64,000 nt of DNA from Vicugna vicugna (Eukaryota). Within the stretch, counting starts at the first letter, position 1, and the number at the start of each line of letters is the position of its first letter. The stretch lies in contig MU058065.1 of the NCBI GenBank assembly GCA_013265495.1, positions 8,184,302 to 8,248,301 on the forward strand, written 5' to 3'. Of this stretch, positions 1 through 56,056 are shown piece after piece. The notes beneath the pieces were generated by a model. The model was given only the letters and a program-made list of their open reading frames with translations, was not told the origin of the DNA and ran no database searches. A program made the position numbers and the translations under genes.

Positions 1-2193
1 TACAGGGCAGAGTTGGGCTAGCGCGTCAGCAGCATCATTGCCCGGTGCCAGGGCTGGGCGGTGCCCTGGTACGTGGTAAACAGTATATTGGCCTTCTTGG
101 CCTTTGTCCCATAAATCCACATCTGCCCACAGGGGCCAGTGCCCAATTATCCAGTCTTGCAGGGCCCATTGGGGTATCCACAATGTAAGGCCTCGATACA
201 CGGCCCAACTATCTGTATAAATCTGCAAGGGGCTAGGTTTATTCATTAACATCAGCCATATTGCCCGTAACTCAGCCCATTGGCTGGATTGGCCTTCTCC
301 GGTCTCATACCAGAAGGCTTTAGTGGCAGGGTGCAGTGCTACTGCAACCCAAGTGGGCGGATTGCCCTTACAAGATCCATCAGTATATCAAGCAGTTTTC
401 GGGGGTGGCCCTTTCCCTTCATGAAAGGGACTGGGCACAGGGTCCACCCCTTGTTGTGGGAGTGTCTGTACATCAGACGCAACAAATTTTACAGGCGCTA
501 ACACCTGCTGCAACTCTGCAGCCAAGGGGCTAGCGGTGTATTGGGCTCTCTGTTCCAAATAAGCACCCCACTTCGTCAGAGTTGGGGTTTGGGCAGTTCC
601 CGATCGGGGTTGTTTTGTCCATGTCTGTACCCATCCTGCAATAGGGCATGTGGTCTGCACTTGGACCTCTTGCCTTCCCATCAGGGGTTCAGTGGCAATC
701 AAGGATGTATAAGTTGCTAGCAACTGTTTTTCAATCAGAGAATAACGACATTTAGCCCCTTTCCATAACTGAGACCAGAATCTTATGGGCACCTTCCGCT
801 GCCCATGTTTCTGCCATAAGCCCCAGCCATATCCATCATTGTCCACATGGACTGTCAACCAGAAAGGGAGGTCTGGATCTATAGTGCGCAGTGCTTGCGC
901 TTGGGCCACTGCCCTCTTAGTTTTAACAAATGTACATTTGGTCTCATCAGACCAATTTCAGACTTTTCCCTTTTTAATCAGTTTATACAGGGGTTTGGCT
1001 ATTTGGGCCAAATGAGGAATAAACACCCGCCAGTATCCCAGAAGACCTAAATAAGTCTGTAACTGTTTAACTGTTTTAGGGCGGGAATATGCCTGGATTT
1101 TGTCTATTACTGCTTCAGGCAGCACTTTTGTCTTACCCGACCAGACAACATCTAAGAATTTGACAGAATATCCAGGTCCTTGTACTTTGTCCTCGTTCAC
1201 GGCCCACCTCTAGCCCGCCAGGGCTTCTCGCAGCGCTGTGGCACTGGTTTCCAAATTTGAAAGAGAATCAGAGGTTAGCATTATGTCATCAATATAATGG
1301 AACAAGCGGACGGTATCTGGTTTGCTTCATGTAGCCAGGTCCTGGGCCACCAGGCCATGACACAGTGTAGGGCTGTGCAGATACCCCTGCGGCAACACAA
1401 CAAATGTCCATTGTCTGCCTTCCCAGGTGAAGCCAAACTGTTCTTGGCTCTCAGGGGCTATGTTTATCGAGAAGAATGTATTAGTCAGGTCAACCACATA
1501 GTGACAAGTACCCAGTTCATGGGACAGTCGGTCCATTAAATCTGTTATATTTGGCTCCGCGGCATGCATGGGGGGAGTGACTTTATTTAGTTCCCGATAG
1601 TCCACTGTCATCCTCCAGGAGCCGTATGGCTTCCACACTGGCCACACTGGAGAGTTATATGGGCTATGCGTAGCCCGAATTATATTGGCTTCCTCAAGCT
1701 TCAGAATAGTCTGTCCTATTTCCTTATGGCCTCCGGGCAATCGATATTGCCGGACATTTACCACTCGTGTGGCCTGTGGCAAAATCAAAGGTGCATGATG
1801 AGGATGCCCCCGTATAACTGTTTTCACCACACGGGCTCTCAGGCGAAATTTTTCTTGAGTCGTCTGTATTTGCAATCCTTGCAAAATGTCTATCCCCAGA
1901 ATGTATTTAGTTACTGGGGATATATGTACTTTATATGCAGCAAGGGGCAGACGGCCAATGCCCAAAATCAGAGTCACTCGTTTAACACATATTTGCTTGT
2001 TTCCATATCCTTCTATATCAACCCATGGTCCCTGAAAACGCTCTGGATTTCCATGCACCAATGTAATTTCAGCTCCTGTGTCTACTAGTGCCAGCACTCG
2101 CTGTTTATTCATGGGGGACCAGTGAATAGTCAGCTCAACATGTGGCCTCCGGTCGTCGGGGTGCCCCACGTCCCGAACACCTTGGCCTTTCTC
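1..2193 (-). pseudogene. pol: ERV pro-pol (aspartic protease, RT, tether, RNase H) with in-frame stops at 1327, 1210, 958 and 388; truncated by window edge
   Basis: DTG at 2074-2082; [28 protein letters not shown] at 1285-1296; RNase H YTDGS, SSQWAELRA, YTDSW, HVPGH, GNDAADALA between 387 and 1. Confidence 0.93.
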
Positions 2194-3564
2194 CTAGTCT
2201 GGGAGGAAATCAGCAAAGGCCACCTCTCGGGCCTGATGGGAGGTTGGCAATGGAGTATATTGTTGCTCAGGCCGTAATTTTTTCCATAAGGCCATCAGCA
2301 CCTCCAATGGCTGGCCATCTAATTTTACACGGTCCAGGCCAGCTGCCAGTAAATCACACCATATCTGCCGGCGATCTAGCTTTTGGGGCCCTCCTAAAAT
2401 TGGAGCATTCCCTTTTTTCCTTCTTGGTGTGGACTTTCCTTTCTGCGTCACTGCACGGGAGGAGGGGGTCTTGGACTCACCTTGAGTCTTGGCAGCACGT
2501 ACCCTCTTTCGGCGCACCTCTATGTCCCCCAGACGAGCCAGAGCCTCAGTTACTTCATGAATGGAGCAGTCTACATACGGTGCTAGTAGCGCCGCCATAG
2601 TTCCAAACGTTCCTGTTGGGCCATTAGCCAAAATCAAATCTTTTATTCGAGCTGTAAGGAGCTCATTAGCTGGACTATGGAAATGCAAAGAAAACATCAT
2701 CTGGTGCATGCTCATTTCCCGGATAACTTGCGCTAAGTCTAAATACGTGGTCCATTTACTCACATGTTCAGGCAAGTCCCCTGCACTTTCCCACACAGTG
2801 CGTACAGCAGCCATTAACCAGCTTATCAGCATATGGTTGCCAGCATCAGCATCTGACTGGGGAATAGTTTGTAGCCTCTGCCGCAGTGAGGGGACAGTTG
2901 TTATGCTGGCCAGCTGGCTCATCTCCTTCGGAGATAGCTCAGTCTGGTCAGCCCCATCATCCCAAAGGCGCAGTAGCCATGCAGGGATTGACTCACCCAT
3001 ACGCTGCTTGCATTGCTTTGCCAGGTCCCTCAATTCCATTGATGTGTAGGATGTATAGGTGGTTTGTCGTGTCACTTGCCGTGGCCCCGTAGGAAATCCC
3101 CCCTGAGCCATGGGCTCCTCCATTTTCATCCGCTGTCTCACCACGGGCTGTAGACGCAGTGGAATGGGGGGAGGGGTTGGGCTTATCGCTCCCAGGGGCG
3201 GTGGGACCGGAGCTATACAGGGATAGCTGCTCTCAGAGGCGGTGGAGCTAGGACCATGCAGACATCTTTCTGCTGTGCTGAGTCTCTGCTTAAGCTCCTC
3301 TTCTTTACACTGTAACTCCTCCACTTGTACCTGTAAATCTCTCATGTCTTGGCTAGCATGCCGTAAAACAGATAAGAACATCTAGGCCACCCTCTCGGCT
3401 GCCTCTCGGTGGGCTAATGGGACATTATTTTCTAACAGCTCCAACGCCCTCCGGACGTCATCTGGCCGGGGCGCCACTGTGTCCCAATCCTCAGGCTGAG
3501 CCCACATCAGCAAATAGGCTGCCACCGGGTACCATACAGAGGTAGGGGGCCACTTTGCTTCCAT
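2194..3564 (-). pseudogene. gag: ERV gag with one in-frame TAG at 3382-3384
   Basis: First in-frame ATG after the PBS is at 3564 (MEAKWPP...); ORFs 3382..3708 and 2194..3381 are contiguous in frame; coiled-coil, Pro-rich and MHR-like segments; no CCHC finger seen. Confidence 0.85.
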
Positions 3565-3603
3565 CAGAGCATCCCCATCAGGGGCAGGGGGTTCAGAAGG
3601 GGC

Positions 3604-3612
3604 ACTCACCTC
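3604..3612 (-). promoter_or_regulatory. Retroviral major splice donor
   Basis: GAG|GTGAGT consensus donor immediately 3' of the PBS. Confidence 0.7.
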
Positions 3613-3630
3613 ATCCTGCCGACTACGCCA
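3613..3630 (-). promoter_or_regulatory. Primer-binding site, tRNA-Ser
   Basis: Minus strand TGGCGTAGTCGGCAGGAT is complementary to the 18-nt 3' end of tRNA-Ser (ATCCTGCCGACTACGCCA); lies directly after LTR-end CA-CT. Confidence 0.92.
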
Positions 3631-3632
3631 AG

Positions 3633-4060
3633 TGTCAGCCGAGGGAGGCTGATGTGGGGTTCTAGGAGGTGAGCGGCCCAAACGAAAAAATGCACGAGGA
3701 GTTGCCATACTGCTGGACAGACTTTAGCCGGAGACACCATGGGGTTAACAACACATTATTGCCACAGGGAGGTGCGCGCCTGTGATGCACCTGTCCTGCT
3801 TTTATCTGTTTTCTGTCAGCACATGCGTGGTCTGAGTTTTTTTGTTCATTAGGCTTACAGAATATCTCTAGCACATGCGTACTTCTATTTTCTTTGTTCT
3901 AAATTTTATATAATTGACGCATGCGTGGAGCAATTATTTACTGCATACTACAAACATGCTCTGTAGTCGTGGCCTTGGGTCCCACAGCCTTAACTTATCT
4001 CAAGGCTCTGGCCATGGCCTTGGGTCCCACGGCCTTAACTCATCTCAAGGCCAGCTCACA
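3633..4060 (-). mobile_element. 5' LTR of the ERV (428 bp)
   Basis: Minus strand starts TGTGAGC at 4060 and ends GCTGACA at 3633 (6/7 inverted terminal match); ends 2 nt before the PBS; TATA-like GATAAAAG at 3799-3806; tandem repeats in U3. Confidence 0.8.
3970..4053. repeat. 45-bp-period direct repeat (two ~37-bp copies) in LTR U3
   Basis: tggccttgggtcccac(a/g)gccttaact(t/c)atctcaaggc at 3970-4006 and 4015-4051. Confidence 0.9.
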
Positions 4061-4299
4061 GAGGGACAAATATAAAGCAATGACCAAATATGTAAAATTA
4101 GCCATTGTCAGTATGAAAAGTTTGATACAATTTTTATAAAAACAAATTCTATGTATGTTTAATTACACAGGTTTGTATGCATAGCAAATAAATTACCAAC
4201 GGCTTCATCTCAAATTGTTTGTATTAGTTATCACCTCCAGGGGTAGGGTGGATGAGGATGTAGGACTTTCATTTTTTTAAGTTTATGCATTTCCAGATT

Positions 4300-8961: not shown

Positions 8962-9192
8962 CTACAGAGGAGAGGTAAAGCTGTCCCAGTTATCAAAAAA
9001 TTCAAATCTCTTTTTCTTCAGTGGACTGCCCAGCAGTGTGCTTTCATCTGGCGTGTCTCCCGTGTCCCGGGAACCAGCCCCGGAGGCACTTCCTGGGTCG
9101 AAGGACTCCGCTGCCTCCAGGAGCGCCGCGTCACTGCCGTCCTCCTCAAAGGACTTCTGGAACAGGTCATAGATCTTCTGCTGCTTTGGGTC
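8962..9192 (-). CDS. SMARCAL1: SMARCAL1 exon 18, last coding exon ([11 protein letters not shown]...[18 protein letters not shown])
   Basis: Pyrimidine tract then aag|GAC acceptor; TAG at 8962-8964; SMARCAL1-like C-terminus. Confidence 0.93.
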
Positions 9193-10222: not shown

Positions 10223-10376
10223 TCGTTTATTTATTTTTGTTTTGTTTGTGTTTGTTTTTTTGGGGGGGTAATTAGGTTTATTTATTTGCTTATTTTTAAT
10301 GGCGGTACTGGAGGTTGAACCCAAGACCTCATGCATGCTAAACATGTGCTCTAACCACTGAGCTATACCTTCCCCC
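10223..10376 (-). mobile_element. tRNA-derived SINE (Vic-1-like, camelid)
   Basis: GGGGGAAGGTATAGCTCAGTGG... head with A/B boxes, A-rich tail, flanking direct repeat ccagacta. Confidence 0.8.
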
Positions 10377-55890: not shown

Positions 55891-56056
55891 TTTTTTTTTT
55901 AATATTATTTCTAACTTATTTATTCATTTAATGTTTTTTGGGGGTGGGGGAGTAATAAGGTCTATTTATTTATTTCAGTGGAGGTACTGGGGATTGAACC
56001 CAGGACCTGGTGCATGCTAAGCACGCGCTCTACCACTGAAGTGATCCCCTCCTGGA
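55891..56056 (-). mobile_element. tRNA-derived SINE (Vic-1-like)
   Basis: CAGTGGTAGAGCGCGTGCTTAGCATGCACCAGGTCCTGGGTTCAATCCCCAGTACCTCC; 16-bp TSD caaga(c/a)ctgcagtctt. Confidence 0.85.

Follow-up and report, generated by a model that had tools for sequence, protein, structure and literature searches.

The window analysed here is a 64,000-nucleotide stretch of the Vicugna vicugna genome (contig MU058065.1), and its first 4,060 positions hold the 5' half of an endogenous retrovirus (ERV) of the ERV-S group. The provirus lies on the minus strand and is truncated by the left window edge before integrase. We favour, with appreciable doubt, an account in which this coding-dead member of a camelid-wide family was edited by an APOBEC-type deaminase at reverse transcription and inserted within roughly the last 4-9 million years. 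The parent virus would have been primed on tRNA-Ser and would have made Pol by read-through of the gag stop. A host cytidine deaminase would have attacked the minus-strand DNA, mostly over protease (pro) and reverse transcriptase (RT), and the damaged copy would have integrated regardless and aged little since.

Premature stops, the G>A excess and age

Gag, pro, RT and RNase H share one minus-strand frame, which has six stops; the remaining two frames have 82 and 77. A tblastn search with six homologues gave eight segments. Seven of them lie in the gag-pol frame, from 3636 down to 10, so a hidden frameshift is excluded; the eighth is a 29-residue tail of one bat gene model. The alignment of the window copy with three sisters contains zero gaps. 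These data uphold the original prediction of one frame over about 3.7 kb without net frameshift, and its claim of retained CpGs holds as well, with an observed/expected ratio (O/E) of 0.44 in the element and 0.32 in the remaining window. This is the highest of 16 4-kb bins (next 0.39) and is close to the 0.48 of an intact avian relative. The provirus had also been called well preserved. That description fails, because five premature stops that went unmentioned, at 3384, 1329, 1212, 960 and 390, lie beside the gag/pro stop and kill coding. The copy is unable to make Gag or Pol because of these stops, and an intact or revivable copy is ruled out by them. The coding features are as follows.

2197..3708, minus strand: gag, with a matrix (MA)-like block, a capsid-like two-lobed core and a basic C-terminal part, and no CCHC knuckle
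3384-3382, minus strand: premature stop that interrupts gag
2194..2196, minus strand: in-frame gag/pro stop, where the alpaca gene model P0083 ends
1864..2151, minus strand: aspartic protease with intact DTG (Pfam RVP, E 2e-4, above cut-off)
1105..1791, minus strand: RT with YIDD (Pfam RT); premature stops at 1329-1327 and 1212-1210
660..960, minus strand: tether/connection domain (Pfam RT_RNaseH_2, E 2e-15); premature stop at 960-958
13..390, minus strand: RNase H (Pfam RNase_H, E 1e-15); premature stop at 390-388

The stop at 2196-2194 is likely to be the natural gag/pro read-through site. An in-frame gag/pol stop is reported in part of PMC8278194 for the class III element XtERV-S. Two camel gene models, however, run across the position.

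Private changes of the window copy were counted over the 417 of 1,236 codons that are represented in two or more of five camelid sister loci, with stop columns excluded. In the window copy 13 of 20 private changes are explained by G>A alone; in the sisters the share is 10 of 31 (Fisher p = 0.042). On the coding strand, its events comprise 14 G>A, 1 C>T and 6 others, with 220 and 204 available sites (binomial p = 0.0008). Private G>A falls at CpG in 1 of 14 cases in the window and in 7 of 10 in the sisters (p = 0.002), and three of the five sisters have 0-1 G>A-type changes. Deaminase editing is indicated because 14 G>A stand against 1 C>T with only 1 of the 14 at CpG, and APOBEC-type editing is to us the probable, if by no means certain, source of the excess. 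Passages of PMC6955324 and PMC4866542 describe a plus-strand G>A bias as a marker of APOBEC3 attack on ERVs. As in the edited ERV copies described there, a single copy, here that in the window, exceeds its family in plus-strand G>A changes outside CpG. It differs from them in that its load is light (14 visible events), no motif is significant and the events were scored on proteins. The word camel does not occur in the main texts of these two papers, whose supplements may list camelid copies.

Several points weigh against editing. Gag carries 1 private change in 111 columns and pol 19 in 305 (p = 0.02), so any editing was patchy. A follows the changed G at +1 in 7 of 14 cases (background 30%, p = 0.10) and at +2 in 6 of 14 (background 25%, p = 0.10); editing in cow favours a GxA context according to part of PMC4866542. 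Of the 9 private changes in the dromedary sister P0105 (LOC116157823), 6 are G>A and none is C>T; three of them lie in a GTG context. The idea of editing was formed on the same data that were used to test it. The counts cover missense changes only, since the sisters are proteins, in one third of the codons, and with stop columns left out the stops are not tied to editing by a test. The sisters are annotated open reading frames (ORFs), biased toward intact copies. The total load of 4.8% of amino acids and five stops also fits plain decay at 2.5%.

Plain decay is the leading rival account, and we consider it unlikely. The ERV-S copy would have arrived intact 10-25 million years ago, around the time when Old and New World camelids separated, and would then have decayed in the ordinary way, with the G>A excess as noise and the lack of frameshifts as luck. 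About 2.5% neutral divergence predicts 4.3-4.6 stops, which matches the private change and the five stops; the family is present in both tribes, and the deaminase context preference is not significant. This account is opposed by the 14:1 strand asymmetry (p = 0.0008), by fewer CpG changes than in the sisters (p = 0.002), by a gag that is almost unchanged (1/111), and by zero frameshifts and a CpG O/E of 0.44. For five stops to arise by decay, about 2.5% neutral divergence is needed. If indel ratios of 1:10 to 1:20 are assumed, a frameshift-free 3.7 kb then has a probability of 0.001-0.03.

A real excess of other origin is slightly less credible again. It could stem from uracil mis-incorporation or RT error without dUTPase, from an edited parent copied in trans, or from an assembly artefact. 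ERV-S lacks dUTPase, the G>A contexts are mixed, P0105 looks like a milder version of the bias, and in gag 187-229 four G>A-type states are common to the window and alpaca P0083 as against the camel locus. However, a family-wide bias should hit all sisters alike, and three of five have next to none; assembly collapse would presumably drift toward the majority sequence, not away from it.

The age estimates start from private amino-acid change. Overall it amounts to 4.8%, or about 2.5% of bases; once the G>A class is set aside, 1.7% is left, or about 0.9% of bases. Substitution rates are taken as 1-2.5 per billion years per site. The resulting values are ceilings because private change includes change before insertion: as rough estimates, 4-9 million years if the copy was edited and 10-25 million years if it was not. 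Canonical HERV-S elements have an LTR (long terminal repeat) divergence of 8-20%, with a mean of 13.4%, in a section of PMC4724089. The window copy, whose age is bounded indirectly, is likely younger than HERV-S. In alpaca, an LTR burst at 1.5-4 million years is reported in a passage of PMC8605555 that does not name ERV-S. Young Ser-primed elements are not unique, because the horse element EqERV-S1 is Ser-primed with an LTR divergence of 1.3% (part of PMC5682256, in which its class is not stated).

Classification and the camelid family

By hand count, with insertions in the published strings set aside, the RT core is identical to published HERV-S Pol at 108 of 152 residues (71%) and to HERV-L at 70 of 152 (46%). 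Gag is homologous to published HERV-S Gag from the N-terminal block on, with 40 of 65 residues identical in the capsid core (hand count), and is 36% identical to that of an avian relative. A motif scan found no zinc knuckle (CCHC) in Gag. RT trees were built from 42 and 19 rows picked from search matches, with most bird matches left out and without a row for HERV-S itself. The window grouped in one clade (100/100) with elements from galliforms, mole, armadillo and bats, and the dUTPase-bearing mouse Pol P0110 fell outside. A single clade of window, alpaca and this mouse Pol was rejected (p-AU 6e-12). We take P0110 to be MuERV-L from its Mus members (753 sequences) and C-terminal dUTPase; its identification in this way weakens the placement test and is a point against our assignment. 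The nearest full-length relatives, P0003 and P0006, contain no Pfam dUTPase. According to part of PMC4724089, HERV-S groups with avian GGERVL18 in Pol, carries an env of class I and lacks a dUTPase.

Taken on its sequence, the element is ERV-S, HERV-S-like and class III; the env and dUTPase positions lie beyond the window. The original prediction of ERV-S rather than ERV-L is thus supported by RT identity, by the Ser primer binding site (PBS) and by the RT phylogeny, which places the window with dUTPase-less bird, bat and mole elements and not with ERV-L-type Pol. That an ERV-L lineage element switched to a serine primer is very improbable. PBS type is unstable, with Ser in 2 of 87 canonical HERV-L chains, and the dUTPase position falls outside the window, but ERV-L identity is largely refuted by the RT identities, the rejected clade and a Gag that tracks HERV-S Gag from the N-terminal block onward. 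A profile-free protein search returned unnamed fragments, of which 7 of 10 looked up were nameless and none was usable as a HERV-S reference.

HERV-S (HERV18/HERVL18-int, LTR18; Vargiu et al. 2016, PMC4724089, in part) has the same PBS type as the window, no zinc knuckle, a Gag whose homology runs from the MA-like block to the capsid core inclusive, an RT about 71% identical, and pro in frame with pol. It differs in being far more decayed (LTR divergence 8-20%), whereas the 3.7 kb in the window are free of frameshifts. As reconstructed in print, HERV-S Gag begins with the MA-like block, whereas the window frame is open from an ATG in U5. A galliform class III element (cluster P0003, with Gallus members; DNA L001), whose name is likely to be GGERVL18/AviERVIII, is an RT sister clade (100/100) without Pfam dUTPase and is 57% identical to the window over pro-pol and 36% in the Gag core. 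Unlike the window, it is intact, its PBS is not Ser, its gag begins only after the PBS, the same frame being closed by a stop further upstream, and its pol overlaps gag in another frame; its contig lists no env ORF. In L001 1-5705 the gag stop overlaps the pol ATG (ATGA), with no in-frame read-through stop. The nearest non-camelid relatives are bat and mole ERV-S-like models (Hipposideros P0021, Saccopteryx P0201, Molossus P0085, Talpa P0006), which are 57-66% identical and known as annotated fragments only. In the bat model the spacer from PBS to MA is two codons shorter and a Met stands right at the MA-like block. MuERV-L and HERV-L resemble the window in class III gag-pro-pol layout, YIDD RT and lack of a zinc knuckle. 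They differ in a Leu/Met PBS, a dUTPase after integrase and no env, and the mouse protein is 37% identical to the window Pol over 685 residues. XtERV-S of Xenopus, in parts of PMC8278194, is likewise class III, with an in-frame gag/pol stop and a Ser(AGA/TGA) PBS, but it is related to ERV-L, its leader measures 158 bp and it includes a dUTPase-like region. A Xenopus Pol, P0007, which may or may not be XtERV-S, lies outside the clade of the window in the RT tree. The armadillo NDFIP2 RefSeq model P0039 starts with about 160 residues of ERV-S-clade RT fused to the host gene and is probably an annotation chimera.

A gag search returned four proteins, from alpaca (95%), Bactrian camel (90%), wild Bactrian camel (97%, short stretch) and bat (59%), and dromedary was added through the clusters of these proteins. 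RefSeq models in the four camelids are 90-95% identical to the window in amino acids. Across the protease-RT stretch, identity to the window is 90-93% for three camelid loci, which share 92.5-95% with one another. The family is, as these proteins place it, multi-copy and found in Old World as well as New World camelids, because sister loci occur in alpaca and three Camelus species. The camelid family proposed earlier is therefore real, in four species with sister copies, but it takes in both camelid tribes. It had also been called poorly described. No paper naming a camelid ERV-S was found in literature searches, which missed Dfam, Repbase and most subscription papers, but ERV-S beyond primates is not unusual, because 29 bat species carry HERV-S-related ERVs (passage in PMC12402889). 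Camelid sister DNA was absent among 10 and 55 viral-contig candidates and from an exact LTR/PBS pattern search, and 4 of 144 metagenome candidates were retained, none above 69% identity. The element is a new member of the known ERV-S group, not a new kind of system.

A possible Gag leader and capsid-like product

The gag frame of the window is open from an ATG in U5 through the PBS into the MA-like block, a feature absent from the original prediction. The elements of this leader are listed below.

3706..3708, minus strand: in-frame ATG in U5, in a strong context with A at -3 and G at +4, 78 nt upstream of the PBS; opens the gag frame
3613..3630, minus strand: PBS, 18/18 complementary to the tRNA-Ser 3' end, after a 2-nt spacer from the LTR; inside the gag frame
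3604..3612, minus strand: splice donor GAG/GTGAGT at 3610/3609, just 3' of the PBS; phase 0 from ATG 3708
3148..3175, minus strand: splice acceptor in gag, with pyrimidine tract and CAG before the cut; phase 0, used by alpaca P0083

A tentative and rather doubtful proposal is that mammalian ERV-S starts Gag in U5, translates through the PBS and splices this leader onto the capsid half, in which case the dead provirus could still yield a capsid-like protein, a candidate Fv1-style restriction factor. In the alpaca RefSeq model P0083, donor 3610 is joined to acceptor 3148/3147, giving 350 residues (33 + 317) without the MA-like part. Both sites are present in the window and both pieces are stop-free, with 317 codons in 3147..2197. 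The opening 33 residues in alpaca P0083 and Bactrian camel P0084 are identical to the window at 33 of 33 positions, and at the Bactrian locus the stretch from PBS to MA-like block lacks a Met. The Hipposideros P0021 model reads from a Met ahead of the PBS through the PBS and into the MA-like block in one frame, with the shorter spacer noted above. From these data we infer, more weakly, a Gag start at the U5 ATG with the PBS doubling as coding sequence. Passages of PMC5538554 indicate that ERVL-class LTRs can carry an AUG and a splice donor. Among the literature matches listed, there was no ERV-S paper on a gag start upstream of the PBS.

The U5 start is challenged on several sides. Gene prediction tends to pick the most upstream ATG. 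The window offers two others, a second one at 3564 and an out-of-frame one upstream at 3740, and a Met stands directly at the MA-like block in bat and published HERV-S Gag. In the avian relative L001 the PBS is different and a stop interrupts that frame.

In gag, no Pfam family was found (one Cdc6_lid match, below cut-off, was disregarded) and a Protein Data Bank (PDB) sequence search gave no matches. The predicted fold of the 317 residues encoded by 3147..2197 has two helical lobes (pLDDT 72). Foldseek ranks 1-7 were all retroviral capsids, but at E 0.35-1.3; the best fold comparison was VIA (Z 5.0), and a foamy capsid gave Z 4.5 over 147 residues at rmsd 4.8. These weak matches are no more than suggestive of a capsid fold. 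Residues 254-294 of the gag model (window ~2388-2266) form a three-helix unit in the nucleocapsid position that weakly matches SAP/HeH-type motifs (MANF SAP, Rho N-terminus; Z 3.6-5.0, ~40 residues). It may be a knuckle-free nucleic-acid-binding module.

Gene models share further junctions in pol. At window position 1257, minus strand, inside RT, the Bactrian camel P0101 and Hipposideros P0021 models both enter RT from gag, and models P0084, P0101, P0102 and P0104 all end at one same later RT motif. The shared entry and end points hint at a conserved internal exon in ERV-S pol.

The LTR, its locus and the meaning of the copy

The LTR, the perfect 18-nt Ser PBS, the splice donor and the position next to SMARCAL1 had all been named beforehand, and each was found: the LTR as 428 bp with TG...CA ends, the PBS as the exact tRNA-Ser complement at 3630..3613, the donor at 3610/3609, and the gene on the same minus strand with 4.9 kb between its stop codon and the LTR. 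The remaining features are these.

3633..4060, minus strand: 5' LTR, 428 bp, TG...CA, with imperfect inverted ends and the PBS directly after it
3961..4050, minus strand: 45-bp tandem duplication in U3, copies 87% identical, with three YCAAGGYCA motifs
3755..3806, minus strand: TATA-like element (3806) and AATAAT poly(A)-like signal (3760), from a motif scan
4061..4065, no strand: candidate 5-bp target-site duplication gaggg, abutting the LTR end on one side only; the partner lies beyond the window
8962..9192, minus strand: last coding exon of SMARCAL1, a host neighbour, with stop codon 8964-8962

We take the gene to be SMARCAL1 from motifs in its translated exons, with no database match behind the name. 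The TATA-like and poly(A)-like positions would place the R region at roughly 3775-3735. The YCAAGGYCA motif, presumably NR5A-type, occurs 3 times in the LTR and 8 times in 59,940 bp of flank. In U3, ACGCATGYG, which we assume to be NRF1-like, gives four matches at 3820-3926 (three sites, one palindromic) and none in the same flank. Co-option of the LTR by SMARCAL1 is rejected: the LTR lies about 4.9 kb past the stop and poly(A)-like signal of the gene, and there is no evidence for such a role. The PBS 18-mer is the start of a template oligo for human tRNA-Ser in part of PMC3299991, and three HERV-S PBS rows typed S in supplement 1 of PMC4724089 differ from it by 1-3 bases. Folding of the leader RNA was no better than that of shuffled sequences (z -0.72), and no second copy of the element was found in the flank searched within the window. 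A word screen of sequencing runs listed 14 runs from four organisms with 0.49-0.59 of the words and six RNA or probable RNA runs with 0.15-0.21, fractions that do not count as evidence for presence or expression of the element. Two tRNA-derived short interspersed nuclear element (SINE) copies lie on the minus strand at 10290-10375 and near 56000; both resemble the camelid Vic-1 family.

ERV-S is known mostly from degenerate primate fossils, and camelid copies 5-10% apart in protein show its organisation more clearly. Our data indicate that ERV-S was still circulating in artiodactyls at most 25 million years ago. If true, the U5 start with the PBS as coding sequence would be an unusual leader design for a retrovirus. 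The window copy probably preserves a trace of camelid APOBEC activity directed at a class III retrovirus, and stop counts would misdate edited copies of this kind.

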